From: a virus
Direction: 5' to 3' (one strand)
IMG/VR virus record: IMGVR_UViG_3300045988_139196
DNA: 64,000 nt
The notes beneath the pieces were generated by a model. It was not told the origin of the DNA. It made no database searches and saw only the letters and a list, made by a program, of their open reading frames with translations. This document shows positions 2,074 through 62,085 of this stretch, in pieces (position 1 is the first letter of the stretch; each line of letters opens with the position of its first letter). The translations under genes and the position numbers were made by a program.

Positions 2074-2149
2074 TGGTTGGACTAGCTGGATTCGAACCAG
2101 CGGAATGAGAGAGTCAAAGTCTCTTGCCTTACCACTTGGCTATAGTCCA
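2074..2149 (-). tRNA. tRNA-Gln (anticodon UUG), CCA encoded
   Basis: rc reads TGGACTATAGCCAAGTGGTAAGGCAAGAGACTTTGACTCTCATTCCGCTGGTTCGAATCCAGCTAGTCCAACCA. Acceptor TGGACTA/TAGTCCA, T-loop GGTTCGAATCC, anticodon loop CTTTGAC. Confidence 0.85.
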
Positions 2150-2262
2150 ATATTAGCACTGCTTTCACAGTGCTTTTTGTTCACCTGCCTTTACAAATCA
2201 GTTTGCAATTTGTAATCAACTAATCGATGAACCGTTATCGTTGTCGGCAACCGTAACCGACT

Positions 2263-2338
2263 TGGTGCAACTTAGGGGACTCGAACCCCTGACCCTTTGA
2301 TTAAAAGTCAAATGCTCTACCAACTGAGCTAAAGTTGC
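2263..2338 (-). tRNA. tRNA-Lys (anticodon UUU), CCA encoded
   Basis: rc reads GCAACTTTAGCTCAGTTGGTAGAGCATTTGACTTTTAATCAAAGGGTCAGGGGTTCGAGTCCCCTAAGTTGCACCA. Acceptor GCAACTT/AAGTTGC, anticodon loop CTTTTAA. Confidence 0.9.
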
Positions 2339-2429
2339 AAGTGCAGGTATCACACTACATTCCCTTATGGTGGGATAAGCTCTGTACCTGCTATGCCAAT
2401 TTGCTTTGTACGGCATTGGCAAACTGTAC

Positions 2430-2514
2430 TGGTGTCACTGACGAGACTCGAACTCGCATGGATTTTTCCGAGGAATTTTAAGTTCCTTGTGTATACCTAT
2501 TCCACCACAGTGAC
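2430..2514 (-). tRNA. tRNA-Leu (anticodon UAA), type II with long variable arm, CCA encoded
   Basis: rc reads GTCACTGTGGTGGAATAGGTATACACAAGGAACTTAAAATTCCTCGGAAAAATCCATGCGAGTTCGAGTCTCGTCAGTGACACCA. Anticodon stem AGGAA/TTCCT, loop CTTAAAA. Confidence 0.85.
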
Positions 2515-7076: not shown

Positions 7077-7736
7077 ATGAGCAAAATAAAATTAATTCTT
7101 ATCGCACTCATGACAATATTAGCATTGTCCTCATGTAATAGTAAAACAACAAGTTCCATATCTGACAGTAATTTCACTACCACTACAACAATTACAACAA
7201 CCACCACTCCCACAACAACTTCTCATACTTTGACAACAACCAAACCATCAACTACCACAACCACTTCCAAATCATCAACTACTACCACAACGACTACAAC
7301 CACAACGACAACTACAACTACCACGCATGATTATAGTTCTGAAATAAGTGCTTTAGAGCAAGAAAATAATCGCCTACAGGGTGAAATCTCCACCTATCAG
7401 AACGAAATAAACAATGAGCAATCTGATATTTCCATCTATGAAATCTATAAATCGGATGCCGAAGATGATGTTGAGGAGGCTAAAATACAGCTTGAAAACG
7501 CCAATAAGAAAATGGTTAAAGTTTATGGTGATGGCGGTTGGACTACAGAAGTTGACTCAGAAGCAGTTTCAAAGGCTCAATCTCACTTAGACGATTGCCA
7601 AAGAGTTGTTGACGTGTACAATGAACTTATATCAGAAAGTCAAAGTAATATTGATTATTATAACACTTGTATATCCAATAATCAAAGTTCCATTGAAAGC
7701 AATAATAGTCTTATAAACGATTATCGTAGCAGATAA
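7077..7736 (+). CDS. lipoprotein with a poly-Thr linker and C-terminal coiled coil
   Basis: Signal peptide with lipobox LALSSC, a Thr-rich low-complexity region of about 65 aa, then heptad-like SEISALEQENNRLQGEISTYQNEINN. Good RBS GGAGGAAATAAAAAATG. Confidence 0.7.
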   Translation: MSKIKLILIALMTILALSSCNSKTTSSISDSNFTTTTTITTTTTPTTTSHTLTTTKPSTTTTTSKSSTTTTTTTTTTTTTTTTHDYSSEISALEQENNRLQGEISTYQNEINNEQSDISIYEIYKSDAEDDVEEAKIQLENANKKMVKVYGDGGWTTEVDSEAVSKAQSHLDDCQRVVDVYNELISESQSNIDYYNTCISNNQSSIESNNSLINDYRSR

Positions 7737-7758: not shown

Positions 7759-8118
7759 ATGAAGAAAATTTGTTCCATTCTTGTGATTGCAATAGGAATA
7801 ACACTATTTGTGATAGGTTATACAACAAAAATTCCAAGCAAAAATTTAACCACATTTTCAATTTTGGAAGGTGACAAGTATAGTGCCATTGACGAATATG
7901 TTGGCGGTGACGCTTACAACTATATCATAGGAGCTTCACTTGTCAGCGGTAAAATAGCCGCTGCGAAAATTGAGAGAGTAATTTTCATATCCACTGGCTC
8001 ATTAATTTTCTCCATTGGCATAATTGGTTTTGCATTTTCATTTAAAACCAAAGAAAAGAAACCTAAAGAAAAAAAAGATGTTGGCGAGCAGGGTGACTTG
8101 TCACAAACTAACGAATAA
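7759..8118 (+). CDS. membrane protein
   Basis: N-terminal TM segment ICSILVIAIGITLFVIGY and C-terminal TM segment VIFISTGSLIFSIGIIGFAF. RBS AGGAGG. Confidence 0.6.
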   Translation: MKKICSILVIAIGITLFVIGYTTKIPSKNLTTFSILEGDKYSAIDEYVGGDAYNYIIGASLVSGKIAAAKIERVIFISTGSLIFSIGIIGFAFSFKTKEKKPKEKKDVGEQGDLSQTNE

Positions 8119-8144
8119 AATTTACAAAGTTCCACAAAATAGTA

Positions 8145-8173
8145 TTGACAAAATGAGTATAGTATGCTATACT
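8145..8173 (+). promoter_or_regulatory. promoter of type III TA locus A (extended -10)
   Basis: TTGACA (8145-8150), 17-nt spacer, TGcTATACT (-10 at 8168-8173). About 26 contiguous nt spanning the -10 and leader (AGTATGCTATACTATAAATGATGAAAG) are identical in the locus B promoter. Confidence 0.6.
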
Positions 8174-8204
8174 ATAAATGATGAAAGGTAGTTATTTACC
8201 ATTT

Positions 8205-8294
8205 CCGCTTACCAATATGCGGGATATAAATGGTTGGGTTGAAAGTTTTCCGCTTACCAATATGCGGGATATAAATGGTTGGGTTGAAAGTTTT
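8205..8294 (+). ncRNA. type III antitoxin RNA: two exact tandem 45-nt repeats
   Basis: CCGCTTACCAATATGCGGGATATAAATGGTTGGGTTGAAAGTTTT occurs twice (8205-8249 and 8250-8294). It sits between a promoter and a terminator, directly upstream of a ToxN/AbiQ-like ORF. Confidence 0.7.
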
Positions 8295-8327
8295 AAGCCT
8301 TGCCGTTGTGGCAGGGCTTTTAATTTT
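8295..8327 (+). terminator. rho-independent terminator between antitoxin repeats and toxin
   Basis: Stem AAGCCTTGCC/GGCAGGGCTT followed by TTTAATTTT. Confidence 0.6.
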
Positions 8328-8342
8328 GGAAGGTGAAAAATA

Positions 8343-8849
8343 ATGGTTGAACATGGCTTTTATATAATTGATGATTTATTCTTCAAGAAATTTAACGACC
8401 CTTTTCTAAAAGGAAATAAATCCGAAAATCGTCCTCATTACTATTGTTTTAAAGATACTAATGAAGGACTATATTGGATAATTCCTTTAAGCTCACGCAT
8501 TAACAAGTATCAAAAGATAATCAACCAACGCTTAAAAAATCATAAGCCATGTGATATATTACATATTTGTACTCTGAGCAATGGAAAACAAAGTGTATTT
8601 TTAATACAAGATATGTTTCCCATTACTCAAAAATATATCAAGCGTAAATATACCATTAATTCCAATCACCTCATTCTTAAAAATCAAAATGAAATACGAA
8701 TTATTAAACAAAAAGCTGAACGTATTCTTAATCAGATCAATCGAGGTCAACATTGTATTACAACTTGTGCCGATGTATTATCTATCAAAAAAGAACTGCT
8801 GTTAGAACTACAGATAGAAACTCAAACAGCGGACACTCTGACTTGTTGA
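8343..8849 (+). CDS. type III TA toxin, ToxN/AbiQ/CptN-like endoribonuclease
   Basis: FYIIDDLFFKKFNDPFLKGNK..NRPHYYCF..GLYWIIPLSSRINKYQKI..SVFLIQDMFPITQKYI has the ToxN/AbiQ family layout. The genetic context is the canonical type III TA arrangement. Confidence 0.7.
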   Translation: MVEHGFYIIDDLFFKKFNDPFLKGNKSENRPHYYCFKDTNEGLYWIIPLSSRINKYQKIINQRLKNHKPCDILHICTLSNGKQSVFLIQDMFPITQKYIKRKYTINSNHLILKNQNEIRIIKQKAERILNQINRGQHCITTCADVLSIKKELLLELQIETQTADTLTC

Positions 8850-8901
8850 TTTGTGTTTTTTGAATTTGCATAAAATTCCATTCAAAACTTTTTGAAAAGC
8901 A

Positions 8902-8930
8902 TTGACAAATTGACAATAGTATGCTATACT
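8902..8930 (+). promoter_or_regulatory. promoter of type III TA locus B
   Basis: TTGACA (8902-8907), 17-nt spacer, TGcTATACT (-10 at 8925-8930). Confidence 0.6.
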
Positions 8931-8962
8931 ATAAATGATGAAAGATTATCTCTATCATCTCT

Positions 8963-9087
8963 AATTTACGCTTCGCAATGTGCGACACAGAAACATTGTA
9001 GATACAATTACGTTTCACAATGTACGGCAAAGTAACATTGTAGTATTCAATTTACGCTTCGCAATGTGCGACACAGAAACATTGTAG
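8963..9087 (+). ncRNA. type III antitoxin RNA: about 2.9 tandem repeats, 43-nt period
   Basis: Repeat 1 (8963-9001) and repeat 3 (9049-9087) are identical: AATTTACGCTTCGCAATGTGCGACACAGAAACATTGTAG. Repeat 2 (9006-9043) is a diverged copy. Confidence 0.7.
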
Positions 9088-9089
9088 TG

Positions 9090-9132
9090 ATGCTGTCATT
9101 TTGGTTAATCTGAAGTGACAGCATATTTTTTT
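9090..9132 (+). terminator. rho-independent terminator
   Basis: Stem ATGCTGTCA (9090-9098) / TGACAGCAT (9116-9124), followed by ATTTTTTT. Confidence 0.65.
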
Positions 9133-9151
9133 GTATTAGGAGTGTCAAAAT

Positions 9152-9640
9152 ATGACGGAACATGGTATGTACTTTATTACACCCGACTATTATCAACTTA
9201 TTCGAGATGTAGGAGGAACTTGGAATGATTGCAAGGAAAGACCCATTGTTTGTTTGATTAAGTCCACCGAAAATTCCAAATTGTATTGGGCAATACCTGT
9301 AGGCAAAGTAAATCATCGTGACACTAAAGCTATTAATCGTATTTATTCCTATATAAACAAAGATCCAAGAAATATTGCTTCTTGCTTTTATCACATTGGC
9401 AAGACAACCACCAAATCTATTTTCTTTATTAGTGATGCTTTTCCTGTAACAGATGTCTACATAGACAGAATTTATGAGGGCTATGATAAACAACAATATG
9501 TCATTGAAAACAATAATCTTCTGTCTGCTCTGAAATATAAGCTCCAAAGAATTTTAAGTTATGAAAATGCTAATCCAAATTTCTTCCGTCAGCATATTAC
9601 CGATGTTAAAAGAAAACTATTAGACGAAATTAACAATTAA
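9152..9640 (+). CDS. type III TA toxin, ToxN/AbiQ/CptN-like endoribonuclease (paralogue)
   Basis: MYFITPDYYQLIRD..KERPIVCLIKS..KLYWAIPVGKV..SIFFISDAFPVTDVYI aligns with the 8343 and 55678 proteins. RBS AGGAG. Confidence 0.65.
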   Translation: MTEHGMYFITPDYYQLIRDVGGTWNDCKERPIVCLIKSTENSKLYWAIPVGKVNHRDTKAINRIYSYINKDPRNIASCFYHIGKTTTKSIFFISDAFPVTDVYIDRIYEGYDKQQYVIENNNLLSALKYKLQRILSYENANPNFFRQHITDVKRKLLDEINN

Positions 9641-9657
9641 ACAAAAGAGGTATTCTT

Positions 9658-9990
9658 ATGTCCGAAATTAAATCAATAACAGACCAAGAAATATTATCAT
9701 ACTGGAACTCAATTAAATCCGTAAGAGGAGTTGCTATTAAACTCGGTATCTCGTGGCAAAGAGTTATGAAAAGTCTTTCTAGTTTAGGTATTATAGTTAA
9801 TAATACCCACGCCAAAATCACTCAATACCACAAAGAAGGGAAGTCGGCTAATGAGATTGCCAACTTAATGAATATGAACGTTAATGTTGTGAAAGCCTAT
9901 CTCCCACGCAACAGACCTCAATACAAGGTTAATCAATCTAAAAATGCTCTAGCAGTACAGAGGAGTAAAGAACGCCACAAGAAACGCTAA
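9658..9990 (+). CDS. small helix-turn-helix DNA-binding protein
   Basis: Two HTH-like segments: VRGVAIKLGISWQRVMKSL and GKSANEIANLMNMNVNVVKAYL. Confidence 0.45.
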   Translation: MSEIKSITDQEILSYWNSIKSVRGVAIKLGISWQRVMKSLSSLGIIVNNTHAKITQYHKEGKSANEIANLMNMNVNVVKAYLPRNRPQYKVNQSKNALAVQRSKERHKKR

Positions 9991-10016
9991 AGGGACTTTT
10001 AAAAGTCCCTTTTTAT
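9989..10016. terminator. bidirectional terminator between convergent genes
   Basis: Stem AAGGGACTTTT/AAAAGTCCCTT flanked by A and T runs. Confidence 0.6.
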
Positions 10017-34516: not shown

Positions 34517-34592
34517 TGTCGGATAGCTCAATCGGTAGAGCAATGCACTGTTAATGCGGAGGTCGTGAGTTCGAGTCTCACTCTGACAGCCA
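34517..34592 (+). tRNA. tRNA-Asn (anticodon GUU), CCA encoded
   Basis: TGTCGGATAGCTCAATCGGTAGAGCAATGCACTGTTAATGCGGAGGTCGTGAGTTCGAGTCTCACTCTGACAGCCA. Acceptor TGTCGGA/TCTGACA, anticodon loop CTGTTAA, T-arm GTGAGTTCGAGTCTCAC. Confidence 0.8.
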
Positions 34593-50740: not shown

Positions 50741-53700
50741 ATGGCAGATGATTTAAAAATACGAGTTCCTGTGGAACTTGACACAAGCAAAGTTAAAGAC
50801 GATATACCTAAATTAAATAATGTACTGGCAAATGACAATAAGGCTCATGCTAAAATCATTGGTGAGTTGGACTTGAATAAAACACAAAAGAAAATTCAAT
50901 CTCAACTTGCTACAATCAGCAAAAATCTAAAAATAGATATTGGTGGTTTAAATGTAACTTCTATTCAGAGTAGTATAAAGGCTGCTGAAAAACAGGTAAC
51001 TAGCTCTGTTAAAAATATAAAGCATGAGATACAGAATATTGACACAACTCTTGCAGAAACTTTTAAGGCAGGTTTTAATAAAGACGGACAGATAGATATT
51101 GTTAAAACTATTGAAAATGCAAGAAAAGTTTTGAGTCAGTTTGGCAATCCGACATTTTCATGGACTAAAGATAGTTCGGGTGAAGTCACTCAAATTACAG
51201 CAGAAATTACAAGTTTGACAGGTCAAGTCGAAAAACTGAAATATGCTCTGAACGAAACAAATGGGTCATTTGACTATCTATCGGGTAGTAGTTCTGAAAA
51301 GGGTATATTAAAGCTGATTGCGGATATTGATAAGGCTAAGTCGGATTATACTGCTAAACTTTCGGCATTTAAGTCAGCGAATAAAGGTATTGAATCGGGT
51401 ATAGGAAATGAAATTAATGCCGTTAATGCTGCTATTGACAATCTTGGCAAGGGTGGTTCTATTGCAGAGGTTGATAAACTATTCAATTCATTAAAAACTA
51501 CTGCAAGCAATATCAGGCAAAATTTAAAATCTCTTACAAGTTCTTTTAATGAAACTACAAATGCCGAAAACACTTTGGCTAAAATGCCTGCAACAATACA
51601 GGAAATATCAAATAGTTTTTCAAAACTTAAACAACAACCGTCAGAGGTTTCCGAATTAATTAGTAACTTAAATTCCCAATTAAATAAGGTCAATGAAACC
51701 GAAAGTCAATTTGGGCGAAACGAAAAATGGTCTGAAGAATATCGTGAGTTAGTTGTTTCGGTTAAAAAAGCAGAAACAGAAATAAAGAGCTTACAGTTAC
51801 TTGAAAGATCTGATAATTCTGAGGCACAGCAGCAAGCTCATTATTATAATAAGATGTTTGGTGAAATCAAACAGATTAATAAGCTTAAAAAGCAACAGGT
51901 CAATGCTGGCGAGCAAGAAAATGTTGAGCTAAAAAGACAGATTAAAAATCTTGAGAGTAGAGTTTCTTATGACGAGAAGCAGCTTAAAAAGAAGAAACTG
52001 ATTACAGAAGAACTTGAAAGACAAAAGAATGAATTAATAAACATTGGTAGGGAAGAACTTAGATTAGCCAATTCTCGTTCTGCTGATAAATCGTCAGCTA
52101 CATCTACTAAAACAGAAAATAATGTAGCTAGACTTACGCAAAATCTCACCACCTTAGAAACAAAATGGAAAGAGTCGCCTATTTTTAATGGAGAGTTTCA
52201 AGAAAAGTTTAATGAGTTAAAAACAAGTTTGTCTAATGTAGGTGGCGATCCTAAAGCATTAGACGAATATCGTATTAAACTCAATGAACTAACAAATGAG
52301 TTAAAGAGGGCAGATGTAGCTTATAAAGCTAGTTTTTCTAGCAATAAATCACAACAGAATATAGAAGCTACAAGGCAGAACATTAAAAAGTTAATATACA
52401 CAATTCAGACATGGCAACAGGCTAATACTAAAGCCATGGGCAAGAATACTTTTAATGGCGGTACATATCAGGTTGAAACTGATAATATGATAGCTTCACT
52501 CAAAAAGTTGCTTAATGCCAGTGATTTAACTGCGAGCGATTTGAAAGCCAATGTTGATAAAATCAATCGTAGTTTTAGGACAATGAGTTCTGAGGCACAG
52601 GCAGCAGGTGTGAACGGTTTAAGCTTTTTCGATAAGATTAAAGAGGACGCTTTAAAGTTCACAAGCTGGATGAGTTTGACTACTGTGATTTCAGGTATAT
52701 CCAGAGAAGCTGTTAAGTTCTATAATAATGTTGTAGATATTGATACAGCTATGACAGACTTGCGTAAGGTTACTGATAACACAAATCAGCAATATACCGA
52801 GTTCTTTGATAATATAGGTCAAAAGGCTAAAGATTTAAAGATTGATTTATCTGATCTTATTTCTCAAACCGCAGAATGGGGTAAACGTGGTTATAGCTTA
52901 GATGAAGCCGAAACACTTGCCACAAACTCAGGTATTTATTCAGTTGTTGGTGAAGTAGATAATGCAACAGCAGTACAAGACCTAACAACAGTTATGAAAA
53001 GCTATAACATGACAGTTGATGAGTCTATCAATATTGTCGATAAGTTTAACGCAATATCAAACAAGTATGCTGTTTCAGCGAGTGACATCGGTGATATGTT
53101 GTCAAGGTCAGTATCTTCACTGAGCGTAGCAGGAAATACACTAGATCAGGCAATAGCAATGGGTACAGCCATTACAGAAATAACTGGAGACGCAGCCGAA
53201 GCGGGAAATAGTTTGAAAGTCCTGTCAATGCGACTTCGTGGAGCAAAAACAGAACTTGAAGATGCAGGCGAGTCAACAGAGGGCATGGCGGTATCGACCT
53301 CAAAACTGAGGGAAGATATTAAAGCTCTTACTAACGTAAATGGCACAGGCGGTTTTGATATAATGAAGGACTCTCAGAATTTTAAGAGTACCTATGAAAT
53401 TATGAAAGGTATCGCCAATGTTTGGAACGATCTTACTGATACATCAAAAGCCGCTGTCATAGAGAAAATCGCAGGCAAGCAAAGAGGCAATACAATTACT
53501 GCATTGCTTACAAATATGAGTCAAGCGGATAAAATTGTTAATGACTCAATAGGCTCTGCTGGGTCTGCTATGTCAGAGTATGAAAAATACCTTGATTCCA
53601 TTCAAGGAAGAGTGCAAGGTTTTCAGACAAGTATTGAAAATTTGTCAGCTACTCTGATTAATGGTGATTTAGTTAAATTCGGTATCACCAGTGGAACACA

Positions 53701-53851
53701 AATTATTGATGTTCTTGATAATCTAATTAGTAAATTCGGTGTTTTAAAAACACTTATTCCTACCGTTATGGCAGGATTATCATTCAAAAACGTAGGTAAA
53801 CAATTATTAAAGATGCCAACTTATGCACAGCCACAAACTATATGTGCATAG
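50741..53851 (+). CDS. tail tape measure protein, 5' portion (the ORF terminates by reading into a group I intron core)
   Basis: Long coiled-coil N-terminus. TP901-family tape-measure core (DIDTAMTDLRKVTDNT..ISNKYAVSASDIGDMLSRS..AGNSLKVLSMRLRG). The last 9 codons plus the TAG overlap the P1 hairpin. Confidence 0.75.
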   Translation: MADDLKIRVPVELDTSKVKDDIPKLNNVLANDNKAHAKIIGELDLNKTQKKIQSQLATISKNLKIDIGGLNVTSIQSSIKAAEKQVTSSVKNIKHEIQNIDTTLAETFKAGFNKDGQIDIVKTIENARKVLSQFGNPTFSWTKDSSGEVTQITAEITSLTGQVEKLKYALNETNGSFDYLSGSSSEKGILKLIADIDKAKSDYTAKLSAFKSANKGIESGIGNEINAVNAAIDNLGKGGSIAEVDKLFNSLKTTASNIRQNLKSLTSSFNETTNAENTLAKMPATIQEISNSFSKLKQQPSEVSELISNLNSQLNKVNETESQFGRNEKWSEEYRELVVSVKKAETEIKSLQLLERSDNSEAQQQAHYYNKMFGEIKQINKLKKQQVNAGEQENVELKRQIKNLESRVSYDEKQLKKKKLITEELERQKNELINIGREELRLANSRSADKSSATSTKTENNVARLTQNLTTLETKWKESPIFNGEFQEKFNELKTSLSNVGGDPKALDEYRIKLNELTNELKRADVAYKASFSSNKSQQNIEATRQNIKKLIYTIQTWQQANTKAMGKNTFNGGTYQVETDNMIASLKKLLNASDLTASDLKANVDKINRSFRTMSSEAQAAGVNGLSFFDKIKEDALKFTSWMSLTTVISGISREAVKFYNNVVDIDTAMTDLRKVTDNTNQQYTEFFDNIGQKAKDLKIDLSDLISQTAEWGKRGYSLDEAETLATNSGIYSVVGEVDNATAVQDLTTVMKSYNMTVDESINIVDKFNAISNKYAVSASDIGDMLSRSVSSLSVAGNTLDQAIAMGTAITEITGDAAEAGNSLKVLSMRLRGAKTELEDAGESTEGMAVSTSKLREDIKALTNVNGTGGFDIMKDSQNFKSTYEIMKGIANVWNDLTDTSKAAVIEKIAGKQRGNTITALLTNMSQADKIVNDSIGSAGSAMSEYEKYLDSIQGRVQGFQTSIENLSATLINGDLVKFGITSGTQIIDVLDNLISKFGVLKTLIPTVMAGLSFKNVGKQLLKMPTYAQPQTICA

Positions 53852-54367: not shown

Positions 54368-54534
54368 GATAATAGAAATATGCGTTAAACGCATAATTTA
54401 TTATTTACACGCATAATTTATTAGTTATACGCATATTTTAGGTGCTTGCCCCTATAATATAATAGAGGTGATACCGCATGGAAGAAACTAACAACAAAAA
54501 GAATGTACGTAAAAAGTAGCAGGAGTTGATAGAT

Positions 54535-54726: not shown

Positions 54727-54802
54727 ACTATAAAAGTTTCATTTTTAATCAACAACCATACACAAAGGTATAAAATTATTTCAAAATTTAGAGGTGAGGT
54801 TT

Positions 54803-54985
54803 ATGGCTAAAACAATAAATGTACAGAATACTAAGATGTCAGTTGAGGAATTTAATCAATTTATTACAGCCAATTTAGATTTTATACTGAGTAATGTACC
54901 GCACAATCCGACAATAAACAAAGATGATGAGTGGAATGATAAAATCTACGATAATTATGCAAAAATCGATGACGATAGGAAGTGA
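54803..54985 (+). CDS. candidate antitoxin of the downstream MazF-like toxin
   Basis: 60 aa with an acidic C-terminus (KDDEWNDKIYDNYAKIDDDRK). Ends 5 nt before the toxin start. RBS AGAGGTGAGG. Confidence 0.4.
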   Translation: MAKTINVQNTKMSVEEFNQFITANLDFILSNVPHNPTINKDDEWNDKIYDNYAKIDDDRK

Positions 54986-54990
54986 CATAA

Positions 54991-55380
54991 ATGGCGAAGA
55001 AACAATGGGAGTTGTGGTACGCTAATTTTCCCTTTGAAGATAAAAATATCTCAAAGGATAGACCTGTTATTATATTGAGTGTGCAACCTTTGTGTGTACT
55101 GTCAATTAAAGTGACAAGTCATGAAGTGAGAGAAGCCGATAAATATGATGTACCTATTACTCATTGGCAAGAGGCAGGATTAAAGCATGAGTCTGTAGCA
55201 CGAATTTCCAAAACCGTATCGTTGGATAACAGTAAGTTCCGAAGAAAAATTGGTGAACTACATAAAGATGATATTGATATTATTCTTGAAAATTATGTTC
55301 AGTTTTTGCTTGAGTCAGATCAGGTTAAAATGGAAAACGGCAAGGGTGACAACGAGTTACTGAACGCAGCAAATGAATAG
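54991..55380 (+). CDS. MazF/PemK-like toxin
   Basis: WELWYANFPFED..SKDRPVIILS......IKVTSH..........ESVARISKTVSLD fits the PemK-like SH3 barrel pattern. Confidence 0.55.
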   Translation: MAKKQWELWYANFPFEDKNISKDRPVIILSVQPLCVLSIKVTSHEVREADKYDVPITHWQEAGLKHESVARISKTVSLDNSKFRRKIGELHKDDIDIILENYVQFLLESDQVKMENGKGDNELLNAANE

Positions 55381-55531: not shown

Positions 55532-55632
55532 TTCAAATGTTTGTCGCTGCTAGATATGCGACTAATAAATAGTCTAGTTCAAATGTTTGTCGCTGCTAGA
55601 TATGCGACTAATAAATAGTCTAGTTCAAATAT
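55532..55632 (+). ncRNA. type III antitoxin RNA: about 2.2 tandem repeats, 46-nt period
   Basis: TTCAAATGTTTGTCGCTGCTAGATATGCGACTAATAAATAGTCTAG occurs at 55532 and 55578, with a partial third copy from 55624. Confidence 0.7.
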
Positions 55633-55662
55633 AGTCTCGCCTAGAGCGGGACTATTTGTTTT
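55633..55662 (+). terminator. rho-independent terminator
   Basis: Stem AGTCTCGC/GCGGGACT followed by ATTTGTTTT. Confidence 0.6.
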
Positions 55663-55677
55663 GAGGGGCATAAATTA

Positions 55678-56157
55678 ATGGAAGTTGGACATTTTTATTT
55701 TTTGGACAATCAATATTATCAAGATTTCAATGACGATAAGCTTATGAGCAATCATGAAACTGTTGATGGTGAAGTACATGGTCGCCCTTGCTATTGTTGT
55801 ATAAACACATCTGATAACGGTATTTATTGGGCTATTCCAATATCTTCGCAAGTTGAGAAATATAGAAAAATATATGATAAGAAGATTGACAAGAATGGAA
55901 AATGCGATACCATTGATTTTGGAAAAGTGCTTGGTGCAGAGAGAGCGTTTTTAATTCAAAATATGTGTCCTGTTACCGATAAATATATAAAGAATGAGTA
56001 TCAACATTTAGGTGTACCAGTAGCCATTGATTATATGACATATAAAAGAATAGTGTCTAAGGCTACAAAGGTGTCTGCTTTGGTACATAATAATAATTCG
56101 CATTTGATATTTCCAGATGTGTTGAAAATTGAAGAAGTGCTAAAGTCAAAAAAATAA
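55678..56157 (+). CDS. type III TA toxin, ToxN/AbiQ/CptN-like endoribonuclease (third paralogue)
   Basis: FYFLDNQYYQDFNDDKL..GRPCYCCI..GIYWAIPISSQVEKYRKIY..RAFLIQNMCPVTDKYIK. Closest by eye to the 8343 protein. Confidence 0.7.
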   Translation: MEVGHFYFLDNQYYQDFNDDKLMSNHETVDGEVHGRPCYCCINTSDNGIYWAIPISSQVEKYRKIYDKKIDKNGKCDTIDFGKVLGAERAFLIQNMCPVTDKYIKNEYQHLGVPVAIDYMTYKRIVSKATKVSALVHNNNSHLIFPDVLKIEEVLKSKK

Positions 56158-56889: not shown

Positions 56890-59800
56890 GTGGCGAACGT
56901 TCGTCAGTTCAACAATCTTTTAGCACAGGGAAAATCTGTAGCTGAAGCTGAGTCAATAGCCTTGAAAGGCTGTTCTGAAACAACTCTCAATGTTGCCAGA
57001 AGTGCTAATGGTGCAGCAGTATCAGAAGAAATACTGTCTGCTTCTTTAAAGGGTGTTGCAACTTCCTCTAAGCTTGCTGCCGCTGGCATGAAAGTATTAT
57101 CAACCGTTGGTAATATGGCGGTAGGTGTTATCGCAAGTATAATCCTTGATGGTAGTATAACACTTTTTGATAATATTGTCAATGGTGCAGATAATGCAAA
57201 AGAAAGTTTAGCTCAGTTCACAAGTAGTTTCTCTGACTCTATTGACAAATTAGACGAAGAAAACAAGTCAGTAAATGAATTAGTAAATCGTTATGTAACT
57301 TTGGTTGCGACAACAGATGACTTGTCAACTGTTAAGGACGATTTGAATACTATTCAGGACAACTTAATTGATAAGTACGGTAATGAAGCTAAGAGCCTTG
57401 ACTTGCTTAATGACAAAATGTCTGAGAATATTAAGAAAATCAAAGAGTGGAAAAAAGAAAAGGCTGAGAGTGAACTTTATCAAGAGTCGGATATTACTGA
57501 TCCTGATGATAGTGATAGAAAGCTGAGTGTTAAAGAAGCCTATGATTTAGCACAAAAGAAATTAAAAGAGGGAAGCTCTTTTAACAAGGGTCTTTTTACT
57601 ACTGATTATGGTGGCAAAGGGCAAGCCTATGTATCAGACGGTCTATTCAGTGGCTATAATTCTAATGCTGATATCAACAAGGTCGGCTCTCGTGGTGATG
57701 GTGATTGGTACAGTTACAAGAATGACATTGAACCAATTCTCAAAAAGTATAATAACGTTGGTATAAGCACTAATGCTTATAGTAATTTACTTTTCGCAGG
57801 TACAATGCAAGAACGTATTGATACCATGCAAAAGGTTTATGATGAATTATCCGAGAAATGGGCAAACATTTCAAAAGACGATAATCGTAACAAGTGGTTG
57901 GCTGACTTGCAAAAAGAAATTGCCACTACAACAGAGGAATATGATAAACTTTCCAATGCCGTTGATAAATACAACGAAATTCAGAAAACACTTGAAAACT
58001 ATAACACAAGTGAAGAATTTAGTAAAGCATTTGATGAAGCTCAGAAAGCTACTGAAAGTTATAGTCATGCTGTAGAAACCAAAAACATTGATGATGTTGA
58101 TAGGCTTTATGATTTAACTCAGAAATACAAAGATAAGTTAATCAACTTGGCTAATGGTGACGAGGATTTAATTGACTATGTTAATACTTTCTTTGAAACT
58201 TTGCCTGCAAAATTAACAACAGGTACTTTTGATATTTCTGAGTGGACGGACGATATTGACGAAGTTCAGAATAAGGCAAAATCACTGAAAGATACCTTAA
58301 CGAGCCTGCAAGACGGAAGTATTTCGGATAGTGATTTAGTTGAACTGTTTAAATCATATCCTGACTTAGCTAAGTTCTCAGGCAACACGGAAAAGCTGAC
58401 AGAAGAAGTTAAGAAACTGATAAGACAAAACCCTAAAGAGCTGATAAATAGACTCAAAGAGTTATCAGACACATTGCCAAATGGCAACGATAAGGCTAAT
58501 GTGGAAGGTCTTATTTCAAGCCTTGAAAAGCTTGGAGAGGTAGCTTCTTCTATTTCCGAAGTTAAGCTGTCTGTAGACGATATTGAGAAAATTTATGAGG
58601 AAACGTTTGATGATCTTATAGATAAAGCCGAGGACGAGAAAGATGTTCTTGAAGAACAAAAGAATATTCTTACAGAACAAAAAACTCAACTTGACAATAT
58701 TATTTCTCAGTACGAAACCGTTGCAAACACAGTGGAGTCTTATATTGACGAGCAGAAATCAGCTATTGAGGACAGATACAATGCTGAAATTGATGCCATT
58801 AAATCCGTTAATGAAGAAAAACAAGATACTATTGACTTACAGGAAAAGTTAAATAATCTTGAAAATGCTAAAAAGAAAAAGGTAAATGTTTATTCTGAAG
58901 CTAGTGGTTGGCACTTAGAAACCAATACCGAGGAAGTAAACAAGGCACAGCAGGAATATGAACAGGCGAGTGCTGATAAACGTGTATCTGACCTTGAAAA
59001 ACAGCGTGACAAGGAAACTTCACTGTGGGATAAGTATAAACAACAGTGGCAAGACCTTATCAATAGCTCTACCAATACAGAAAATGAACAGCTTGCCAAA
59101 GATATTTTAGGCGTTAATTGGACGGACAAAATAGCACAGCAAGACACGAATATTCTTAATGACTTTGCGAGCAAATATCAATCTTATCGTTCTCAGCTAT
59201 CAGATCAGGTTGAAAAGGAAATTGAGAGCGTTGATAAAGAGATAACGGCTAAAAGCAAAGAAATTGAGGCATACAAGAAAGAAAAAGAAGCTTTATCAAA
59301 CTATGTTACAGATATTACGAATAAGAACAAAGACTACATAAAACAGTTGACAAACGTTTCTGAAAAAGAAATGCAGACTATGGAAGGTAGGACTAAGTTC
59401 TTAGAGGATTGTAAAAAACGTGCTAGGGAAGCTCTTGACTATTCTGATATTTCTGTTGAGGGTGCTAAATCGAATGGTTTGTATCTTGTTCAATATGACG
59501 GTGAAACTGTTGGAACAGGGCTTGATGAAGCACAAGCAGAACAGTTAAAATCTGAACTGTACGGCAAAATGGTTTCATCAGAACTCTTGGCTAACCCTAT
59601 GCTTGGTAAGAACAAGGGTGCATTAACAGCTATTCTTAACGCTTTAAAGAGTAAGTTTAACATTATTAAGCCATATCGCTCAGGTGGTATTGATGATTAT
59701 ACAGGGCTTGCTCAACTTCATGGAAAGCCAAATGCAGTTGAAACTATCTTCAATTCAGAGCAAGGCAGAAAGCTATACAACCTTGTGGCTAATACGGATA

Positions 59801-60027
59801 ACCTTGTCAATTATATTGGAGATAAGATTTATAACGGCATAACAGATTTGGTAAGGACAAAAATGTCCTCACCAAACAATATTCAAAATAGAAATGACAC
59901 AAACAATAAGACTATCGTATTCCAGATTGATACTGTCAATACAACAGACGGCACAACATTCTTAGAGCAGATGAACGCTTATCTGCAACAGGCTGATTTG
60001 GATAGAATAGTTGGTAAAAATTATTAA
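56890..60027 (+). CDS. tape-measure-like coiled-coil protein, likely the 3' portion of the split tape measure; 5' boundary unresolved
   Basis: No ATG or RBS. The frame is open from 56743. N-terminus has a hydrophobic Gly/Ala segment (AAGMKVLSTVGNMAVGVIASIILDG), followed by about 900 aa of coiled coil. Confidence 0.55.
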   Translation: MANVRQFNNLLAQGKSVAEAESIALKGCSETTLNVARSANGAAVSEEILSASLKGVATSSKLAAAGMKVLSTVGNMAVGVIASIILDGSITLFDNIVNGADNAKESLAQFTSSFSDSIDKLDEENKSVNELVNRYVTLVATTDDLSTVKDDLNTIQDNLIDKYGNEAKSLDLLNDKMSENIKKIKEWKKEKAESELYQESDITDPDDSDRKLSVKEAYDLAQKKLKEGSSFNKGLFTTDYGGKGQAYVSDGLFSGYNSNADINKVGSRGDGDWYSYKNDIEPILKKYNNVGISTNAYSNLLFAGTMQERIDTMQKVYDELSEKWANISKDDNRNKWLADLQKEIATTTEEYDKLSNAVDKYNEIQKTLENYNTSEEFSKAFDEAQKATESYSHAVETKNIDDVDRLYDLTQKYKDKLINLANGDEDLIDYVNTFFETLPAKLTTGTFDISEWTDDIDEVQNKAKSLKDTLTSLQDGSISDSDLVELFKSYPDLAKFSGNTEKLTEEVKKLIRQNPKELINRLKELSDTLPNGNDKANVEGLISSLEKLGEVASSISEVKLSVDDIEKIYEETFDDLIDKAEDEKDVLEEQKNILTEQKTQLDNIISQYETVANTVESYIDEQKSAIEDRYNAEIDAIKSVNEEKQDTIDLQEKLNNLENAKKKKVNVYSEASGWHLETNTEEVNKAQQEYEQASADKRVSDLEKQRDKETSLWDKYKQQWQDLINSSTNTENEQLAKDILGVNWTDKIAQQDTNILNDFASKYQSYRSQLSDQVEKEIESVDKEITAKSKEIEAYKKEKEALSNYVTDITNKNKDYIKQLTNVSEKEMQTMEGRTKFLEDCKKRAREALDYSDISVEGAKSNGLYLVQYDGETVGTGLDEAQAEQLKSELYGKMVSSELLANPMLGKNKGALTAILNALKSKFNIIKPYRSGGIDDYTGLAQLHGKPNAVETIFNSEQGRKLYNLVANTDNLVNYIGDKIYNGITDLVRTKMSSPNNIQNRNDTNNKTIVFQIDTVNTTDGTTFLEQMNAYLQQADLDRIVGKNY

Positions 60028-61935: not shown

Positions 61936-62085
61936 ACAAGCTAACGTAGGTATGTACCGTAGGCTATACGGGAATTTACGCCTGTGGACTATACAAGAAC
62001 TTGTGAGTAGTCTTATGACAAAAGCATATAGGTTGAAGCAGGAATTTTCTCGATATGGATATATTTGTCCATATTTTGAGTAGCA
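61880..62085 (+). ncRNA. predicted omega-RNA (reRNA) scaffold of TnpB; boundaries approximate
   Basis: Inferred from the known TnpB architecture (scaffold overlaps the tnpB 3' end and the IS right end). A hairpin ATATGGA/TCCATAT lies at 62054-62076. Confidence 0.3.

Follow-up and report, generated by a model that had tools for sequence, protein, structure and literature searches.

The viral DNA stretch IMGVR_UViG_3300045988_139196 (IMG/VR; 64,000 nt, the whole of which is called the window below) carries at positions 8902-9640 (+ strand) what looks like a second type III toxin-antitoxin (TA) locus, placed directly behind a first one. This poses the question whether the second locus, here called locus B, is a working module, and what is to be made of its antitoxin array, in which the middle repeat unit differs from its two neighbours. 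The window is DNA from a phage of a gut bacterium of the Clostridia; genes for a portal and a tape-measure protein, terminase-like matches and a gene of the integrase family are present. We propose that locus B is, with good probability, a functional type III module of a distinct and largely unannotated branch of the CptIN superfamily. What appears to be new here is the link between the Rfam motif RF02920 and the family of the locus B toxin (ToxB, encoded by toxB), a covarying pseudoknot helix in the RNA, the ordered heterogeneity of the array and a slot for exchangeable cassettes that is anchored by a promoter.

Promoter, repeats, terminator, ribosome-binding site and toxin open reading frame (ORF) follow one another in the canonical type III order (coordinates are collected in the table below), which is also the order of the E. 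rectale CptIN locus (PDB 4RMO). Directly upstream of toxB, Tandem Repeats Finder (TRF) detects tandem repeats at 8963-9088 (period 44, 2.9 copies, 80% matches, score 189). The units are spaced by 42 and 44 nt and the linkers between them measure 10 and 12 nt. With 43 nt on average and its 2.9 copies, the array lies inside the ranges published for cptIN, i.e. repeats of 40-48 nt in 1.9-3.4 copies (Blower 2012, PMC3401426). The first-pass annotation of this DNA had described a second, complete and adjacent type III locus, and all of its elements were found where it had placed them, with small corrections. Locus B does begin 53 nt past locus A (toxA stop at 8849, locus B -35 from 8902), strong divergence separates its repeat and toxin from those of locus A (toxA and toxB are 30% identical, E 6e-17), and units 1 and 3 are identical as claimed, over a span of 39 nt (8963-9001 = 9049-9087). 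The period of 43 nt with about 2.9 units stands as a copy number and as a mean, while the period given by TRF itself is one nucleotide longer.

The array of locus B matches RF02920 over the full length of the covariance model (88.7 bits, E 1e-10). As this score lies above the gathering score of the family (52.1 bits), the array is not a chance repeat, and like the model it comprises three hairpins. RF02920 is typed in Rfam as cis-regulatory, bears the name Fusobacteriales-1 and reportedly goes back to a motif survey by Weinberg in 2017. A literature search on 'Fusobacteriales-1' returned nothing, and the main text of the survey (PMC5737381) does not mention a motif of this name. For comparison, we fetched 80 species-level loci encoding members of the toxB family, whose hosts include Lachnospiraceae, Oscillospiraceae, Phascolarctobacterium, Enterococcus, Erysipelotrichaceae, Desulfosporosinus and Fusobacterium; the closest of them (99%) belongs to Hominimerdicola aceti of the family Oscillospiraceae. 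RF02920 was present in full length, above threshold and directly upstream of the toxin ORF in 20/20 loci tested, which cover Bacillota as well as Fusobacterium and at least six bacterial families. In the majority of the 80 loci, the toxin gene is preceded by an array of 39-46-nt repeats in about 2.9 copies, as found by TRF, and then by a terminator. The motif was named for Fusobacteriales, whereas here it occurs in an Oscillospiraceae phage and in many Bacillota, always before a gene for a CptN-like toxin. RF02920 is best read as a type III antitoxin array.

The repeat units of the toxB family follow a common plan, N4-TTC-(N)CAATGT-N4...A-rich...-ACATTG(N)-linker. In addition to the S2 helix, which joins the two inverted motifs, a second helix, S1, is formed by the 3-4 bases 5' of the TTC, which pair with the bases right after the 5' strand of S2. 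Across the units of the family, S1 appears as CGC/GCG, CGT/ACG, CCT/AGG, GCAC/GTGC, GACC/GGTC and AGTG/CACT. Each unit is thus predicted to be an H-type pseudoknot that shares its topology with CptI, and covariation provides strong support for this fold. Units were collected with a hairpin-and-spacing finder, since a strict regular-expression anchor missed many of them. In an alignment of 128 distinct units, which was picked partly on pairing and is hence biased, the S1 pairs 2-17, 3-16 and 4-15 are formed in 126-128 units; double changes number 27, 32 and 58, respectively, and S2 is paired to 99.9%. The covariation score is 0.439 versus 0.162 for shuffled alignments (reached in 0/500 shuffles), and partners slid along the sequence score at most 0.135. 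In a control set, in which units were defined by stem and spacing only, all three S1 pairs were present in 112/141. The Rfam model does not contain the covarying pseudoknot helix seen here.

The best-conserved bases of the whole repeat are found in the linker between the units, where the trinucleotide CAA is kept at 93-99% in 114 linkers (consensus TKATNCAAAN). By analogy with ToxN and CptN, we infer that this CAA is a candidate site of cleavage by the toxin. The unit of CptIN folds into an H-type pseudoknot too, and its third loop is A-rich as well. The two RNAs differ in their dimensions: S2 comprises 7 bp and the first loop (L1) 3 nt in locus B, where CptI has about 5 bp and 1 nt, and there are three units rather than about two.

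On the protein side, ToxB is a divergent relative of CptN and not an unrelated type of toxin. A phmmer comparison with CptN (4RMO) gives E 1e-4, and a profile of 31 toxB-family members aligns to CptN in hhalign with 99.0% probability (E 3.3e-18, 154 columns). The AlphaFold2 model of ToxB has a mean predicted local distance difference test score (pLDDT) of 93.9. Its best match in the PDB is 4RMO_A (template-modelling (TM) scores 0.75/0.78, E 4e-10), with MazF toxins next. ToxB is predicted to be an endoribonuclease with a ToxN/CptN/Kid-MazF-like fold. It resembles CptN in homology by profile and in predicted fold, and it seems to keep equivalents of part of the active site. Of the active-site residues of CptN_Er (S51-S52-R53, D81, S85 and Y104; PMC4627078), R53, S85 and Y104 align in hhalign to R56, S89 and Y108 of ToxB.

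The toxB family is large, with at least 665 clusters of homologues at 90% identity and, at 50% identity, 100 representatives with E <= 1e-10. Its invariant residues are H55, R56, S77, C78, Y80, H81 and R146-T150. Nearly all homologues are unnamed or 'hypothetical', including those on Clostridium plasmids annotated by the Prokaryotic Genome Annotation Pipeline (PGAP) and on a C. difficile phage-plasmid. A Pfam search with toxB gave no match, PF13958 (ToxN_toxin) included, and the models of PADLOC-DB 2.0 matched none of the three toxins of the window, toxA, toxB and toxC, at E <= 1. A member of the family may nevertheless have been counted before. A cptIN locus was listed in F. nucleatum subsp. 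vincentii ATCC 49256 (Blower 2012, PMC3401426), the strain of one of our toxB-family loci (L037), so the branch, through its Fusobacterium members, was probably already included in cptIN in 2012. As a separate observation, a skipping-rope RNA (RF02924, 55.1 bits) lies directly downstream of the toxB-family gene of Ruminococcus sp. zg-924 (L021, 3493-3570).

From these data, we propose the following model. A strong sigma-70-type promoter would drive a transcript containing three units of about 43 nt in tandem, and each of these would fold into an H-type pseudoknot, in which S1 (3-4 bp) forms between the bases just 5' of the UUC loop and the first bases past the 5' strand of S2, S2 comprises 7 bp (xCAAUGU/ACAUUGx) and the third loop is A-rich. 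The terminator at 9090-9133 would stop most transcripts, so that the RNA would be far in excess of the toxin mRNA, and read-through would allow the production of ToxB, an endoribonuclease of the CptN fold. By analogy with CptIN and ToxIN, ToxB would cut the precursor in the CAA linkers and would be inhibited by forming a complex with the pseudoknots. In the mechanism common to type III systems, as in ToxIN (Pectobacterium, Bacillus), the RNA is cut by its own toxin and a closed inhibitory complex is formed; the complex of CptIN is a heterotetramer of 2:2 protein-RNA composition (PMC4627078). Unit 2 would be a genuine working unit, and the usual heterogeneity of the array, in which a unit of one type (b) stands between two of another (a), would be conserved across the arrays of the family. 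For locus B itself, we infer transcription, RNase activity, cleavage site, neutralisation and stoichiometry.

How does the middle unit fit into this model? Unit 2 differs from unit 1 at 6/32 core positions, or at 9/44 aligned columns if linkers are counted. At about 20%, the divergence noted in the first-pass annotation is real and its extent slightly under the quarter of positions given there. Every invariant or near-invariant column of the family and both helices are kept in unit 2. Its change in S1 is compensatory, with C to T paired with G to A, and a change at the base of the stem turns a G-U into an A-U pair. Because the invariant columns are kept and the S1 change is compensatory, unit 2 appears to be under selection for the same fold.

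The same arrangement recurs in the family. With each unit lettered by its S1, the 54 distinct three-unit arrays fall into a-b-a (28), a-b-c (9), a-a-a (12), a-a-b (3) and a-b-b (2), and after single-linkage clustering of the toxins at 70% identity into 11, 2, 7, 0 and 1, respectively, although these a-b-a counts share ancestry and are not phylogenetically independent. The closest pair of units within an array is 1+3 in 27 of the 54, 2+3 in 16 and 1+2 in 4. The sequence of type a varies among lineages (CGC, CCT, GCGT, GTGT, TCGC), and units 1 and 3 therefore change together. Where neighbouring units differ, double changes far outnumber single ones (50 vs 7 at pair 4-15, 32 vs 3 at 3-16, 34 vs 2 at 2-17). 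Moreover, units are nearest to the units at the same position of distant loci in 26, 31 and 34 of 54 cases, where about 18 are expected. Judged by these patterns, the diverged middle unit is a trait of the family and not a local oddity or a product of decay; the idea of a decayed copy was rejected on the compensatory changes and on the family-wide conservation by position.

We also compared related phages for variation of the array, as the first-pass annotation had asked. Their single-nucleotide polymorphisms are structure-neutral, and arrays of a single unit also occur. In one such variant (L105, 3481-4115), units 1 and 3 are fused, unit 2 is gone and toxB is intact. A second one (L115; OLOW01000291.1, 520-1300) shows the same junction in an independent assembly, and here a loss of about 200 bp cuts toxB short near residue 147 and joins it to a helix-turn-helix (HTH) gene. 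A collapse of the assembly was considered as the origin of the array of L105; L115 has the junction independently, though with a truncated toxB.

Could unit 2 have ceased to serve ToxB, either as a decaying copy or as a pseudo-antitoxin against another toxin, for example a ToxB-family or CptN toxin of the host? The first-pass annotation had raised the latter, and the loss of unit 2 next to an intact toxB in L105 would fit. The core of unit 2 is also only 1 nt away from units in loci of other species, the toxins of which are about 55-60% identical, which makes cross-recognition conceivable, and ToxIN is said to have a precedent in the mimicry by a phage pseudo-ToxI (Blower et al. in PLoS Genet, 2012). 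However, unit 2 retains the invariant positions and both helices and has a compensatory change in S1, and a distinct middle unit is the norm in the family, conserved by position in distant loci. Unit 2 also tracks the divergence of the toxin at least as well as unit 1 does (rho 0.33 vs 0.26 between toxin and RNA distances), correlations that show co-inheritance only and not co-evolution. It is the only unit that lies between two complete CAA linkers, and no orphan units of the A, B or C type were found elsewhere in the window. With the fold conserved and a-b-a the commonest pattern, the suggestion of a pseudo-antitoxin finds no support, and we give this alternative a small chance only. A working unit 2 remains our preferred interpretation.

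A bolder idea is that the ordered a-b-a array is a functional design and not drift, which we put forward tentatively and regard as rather unlikely. In one form of this idea, unit 2 may be the sole fully processed pseudoknot because only the middle unit has two complete linkers, while units 1 and 3 keep the leader or the terminator tail, and two RNA species may be required, either in the inhibitory complex or while it assembles on nascent RNA. In another, S1 and S2 of adjacent units are possibly kept different so that tandem pseudoknots avoid cross-pairing. For locus B the latter argument is weak, since CGU could wobble-pair with GCG. If such a design were true, this would be the first type III antitoxin with non-equivalent repeats, and RF02920 would be a widespread antitoxin class and no longer an orphan 'cis-regulatory' motif. 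The nearest parallel is TenpIN, whose tandem antitoxin repeats differ by up to 35% and yet keep the potential to form pseudoknots, whereas toxI and cptI usually have almost identical repeats (PMC12283969, Sci Rep 2025). TenpIN shares with locus B the non-identical repeats and the question whether all units function. It differs in its toxin family and its two-unit arrays, whereas the locus B family is CptN-like, ordered as a-b-a and compensatory in its changes.

A further alternative takes the classification in Rfam at its word. Here, the three-hairpin RNA would be a cis-acting leader that controls read-through of the terminator, and not an antitoxin that is processed and acts in trans. In line with this, the element is always followed by a terminator and a member of one gene family, unit number varies unusually little (three units in 61/78 loci), and the identity of a unit depends on its position, as one would sooner expect of a single structured RNA than of an array of repeats. 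On the other hand, sequence, profile and predicted fold all mark the downstream protein as a homologue of CptN, every unit is by itself an H-type pseudoknot on the CptI plan, and the best-conserved bases lie in single-stranded linkers, as a nuclease site would have it. Intact toxins occur with arrays of 1, 2 and 3 units. The two readings also overlap, as type III arrays with their terminator act in cis as well. Overall, we consider a purely cis-acting leader improbable and keep to that of an antitoxin array.

Several further observations speak against a working type III module and have to be set beside the selection of the unit alignment and the shared ancestry mentioned above. A nested minimum free energy fold joins unit 1 to unit 3 instead of giving three hairpins; such folding is uninformative for pseudoknots. 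The loci L023/L027 and L042 combine an intact toxin with one unit, and because one-unit arrays with an intact toxin exist, unit b must be dispensable at least sometimes. ToxB matches the CptIN equivalog model NF047359 of NCBIfam over its full length (57.7 bits, E 1.2e-15), but below the curated cut-off of 90 bits, which toxA (168.9) and toxC (185.4) both exceed. Finally, the Ser-Ser-Arg triad of CptN aligns to Gly-Lys/Asn...His-Arg in ToxB and D81 to a gap: S51 and S52 correspond to G51 and K52, and an invariant histidine, H55, is inserted beside R56. Judging from this alignment, the catalytic chemistry of ToxB may differ from that of CptN; a loss of catalysis appears less likely than a differing chemistry. 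As locus B stays below the equivalog threshold and has no counterpart of the triad's Ser-Ser, it files as a distinct branch of the CptIN superfamily and not as a plain CptIN member.

That locus B is an inactive, passive remnant with a catalytically dead toxin, as the loss of the triad and the truncated toxB of L115 might suggest, is very improbable given that the substitutions are common to the whole family with its many invariant residues, that the ORF is intact and 97-100% conserved in 27 of the related phage contigs, and that the RNA structure is under purifying selection.

The second question raised by the position of locus B is why it shares its promoter with locus A. Both promoters read TTGACA-17-TATACT with an upstream TG (score 11/12, a consensus match only), so the -35 hexamer is common to both loci, as had been pointed out. 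The window holds exactly two copies of the 27-mer quoted in the first-pass annotation (at 8161 and 8918), where chance would give 0. Uninterrupted identity extends over 29 nt (8159-8187 = 8916-8944), and the whole promoters are identical at 41/44 nt (8144-8187 vs 8901-8944). The annotation had assigned about 26 contiguous identical nt to the -10 and the leader. The identity stands, and is slightly longer, but the stretch is promoter rather than leader, because a start about 7 nt past the -10 would leave few of the shared bases transcribed.

The 28-nt promoter core is found exactly in 34 IMG/VR loci on 32 contigs of 65-116 kb. All 32 contigs have a membrane-protein gene to the left and an HTH gene to the right, and the cassette behind the promoter is A then B in about 9, B alone in 19 and ToxIN in 4. 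The ToxIN cassette (L083, L088, L096 and L099) consists of the 37-nt repeat TTAATTCTCGGTGTTTCACTACCGCAAATGTGAGCTT in 2 or 3 copies depending on the phage, a terminator and a 173-aa toxin; an NCBIfam search with this toxin gave no match, and Pfam then gave ToxN (118 bits, L083), a family that toxB itself does not match. In phages with B only, the upstream flank of locus A leads directly into the shared core, followed by the leader of B. Two recombination joints can be located, one in the promoter core and one within the -35 (L089), and one contig has a hybrid B/ToxIN leader (L097). The identity of the A and B promoters is best explained by a fixed promoter of the slot, behind which cassettes are exchanged or duplicated by recombination. 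The A and B cassettes would thus share one slot between the membrane-protein gene and the HTH gene, and the A+B state has a duplicated promoter as a recombination handle. Other mobile elements are known to have hotspots at which defence or TA cargo can be exchanged, e.g. those of P2/P4. In contrast to these, the exchange joint is here the promoter itself, so that the cassettes inherit an identical promoter.

This bears on the earlier view of loci A and B as a co-regulated tandem pair. The two should indeed be expressed alike, but not simply through evolved co-regulation, because the slot is polymorphic and recombination joints lie within the promoter. A shared operator as a sign of such co-regulation was considered too; the inverted repeat over the -10 has no copy outside these two promoters and so provides no independent evidence. 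That tandem pairs are unusual, as the first-pass annotation had remarked, is confirmed: a CptN gene lies within 3 kb in 1/80 species-level loci (L001), which is the same element. A blastn search with 8100-9700 found no match among GenBank phages (INPHARED).

Downstream, there is no terminator between toxB and the HTH-like ORF at the right border of the slot, and the same HTH gene follows the ToxIN cassette in L083. The ORF is probably co-transcribed with toxB. The HTH protein might recognise the inverted repeat that overlaps the -10 in each of the two promoters (8160-8174 in locus A, 8917-8931 in locus B). At the left border, a Thr-rich, lipoprotein-like ORF (7077-7736, with low-complexity ACN repeats at 7233-7321) is followed by a small membrane protein (7759-8118); together the two are moron-like.

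The two other type III loci of the window, A and C, are canonical CptIN systems. In a direct comparison, toxA matches 4RMO with E 6e-51. The repeat of locus A, AAGUUUUCCGCUUACCAAUAUGCGGGAUAUAAAUGGUUGGGUUGA, is a clear homologue of the crystallised E. rectale CptI with compensatory changes in both stems, and it has the GUUGA|AAG junction at which CptN cuts E. rectale CptI. The repeats of A and C are perfect, whereas the units of locus B in the same phage are non-identical by position. The promoter of locus C differs from that of A and B. The toxins A, B and C are mutually 28-36% identical. Since CptIN systems with 35-44% identity do not cross-neutralise (PMC4627078), the three systems are likely orthogonal.

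Features of locus B and of the related loci in the window (coordinates refer to the 64,000-nt stretch)
Feature	Position	Strand	Remarks
Locus B promoter	8902-8930	+	-35 TTGACA at 8902-8907, 17-nt spacer, extended -10 TG-n-TATACT ending at 8930; predicted by consensus scan
29-nt stretch identical to locus A 8159-8187	8916-8944	+	holds the inverted repeat at 8917-8931
6-bp inverted repeat TAGTAT-GCT-ATACTA	8917-8931		overlaps the -10 of locus B
Locus B leader before unit 1	8945-8967	+	its final TAATTT is a weak version of CAATT(T), the end of the linkers between units
RF02920 (Fusobacteriales-1) match	8964-9085	+	88.7 bits, model positions 1-113, three-hairpin model
Unit 1 core, type a	8968-8999	+	S1-5' ACGC 8968-8971, L1 TTC 8972-8974, S2-5' GCAATGT 8975-8981, S1-3' GCG 8982-8984, A-rich loop to 8992, S2-3' ACATTGT 8993-8999
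Linker 1, AGATACAATT	9000-9009	+	family-conserved CAA; candidate toxin cleavage site
Unit 2 core, type b	9010-9041	+	S1 ACGT/ACG, S2 ACAATGT/ACATTGT; 6 differences from unit 1
Linker 2, AGTATTCAATTT	9042-9053	+	contains CAA
Unit 3 core, type a	9054-9085	+	same as unit 1; without a complete linker after it
Intrinsic terminator between array and toxB	9090-9133	+	15-bp stem, then T-run
Ribosome-binding site AGGAG	9138-9142	+	9 nt 5' of the ATG; read from the sequence
toxB	9152-9640	+	162-aa CptN-like toxin, predicted endoribonuclease
HTH-like ORF, 110 aa	9658-9990	+	right border of the slot; starts 18 nt past the toxB stop
Bidirectional terminator	9989-10012	+	ends the HTH-like ORF
Locus A, canonical CptIN	8145-8849	+	promoter 8145-8173; terminator 8295-8319; toxA 8343-8849
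Locus A repeats	8202-8294	+	45 nt x 2.1, perfect
Locus C, canonical CptIN	55532-56157	+	46 nt x 2.2 perfect repeats at 55532-55630; toxC 55678-56157

Directly upstream of locus C, a probable type II TA pair at 54794-55380 consists of a 63-aa ORF and a 129-aa MazF-like ORF (PHROG 1936, E 4e-20). Together with locus C, it lies between tape-measure-like ORFs (50741-53851 and 56890-60027) and forms a small TA island in the tail module. A tandem repeat of 20 nt x 2.8, GTTAAACGCATAATTTATTA, is found at 54384-54440, upstream of small ORFs before the MazF-like gene. Near the end of the tail region, at 61981-62044, lies a RAGATH-18 RNA (RF03064, 69.4 bits). The phage tRNA genes comprise a cluster of three at 2077-2514 (-) and a single one at 34517-34589 (+).

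Taken together, an orphan RNA motif, RF02920, and a large family of 'hypothetical' proteins become readable as a single type III class of toxin-antitoxin modules, which is spread over gut Clostridia, Fusobacterium, phages and Clostridium plasmids and is missed by NCBIfam, Pfam and PADLOC. The type III paradigm is left standing by all of these findings. Antitoxins of this type are commonly regarded as series of equivalent repeats; in this family, non-equivalent and position-specific units with compensatory changes are the rule. The question whether every repeat is a working antitoxin, which was raised in 2025 for TenpIN, can now be tested in a defined system. The slot with its fixed promoter, which accepts CptIN, CptN-like and ToxIN cassettes, explains the identical promoter in front of very different modules and provides a natural example of how phages shuffle their TA and defence cargo.

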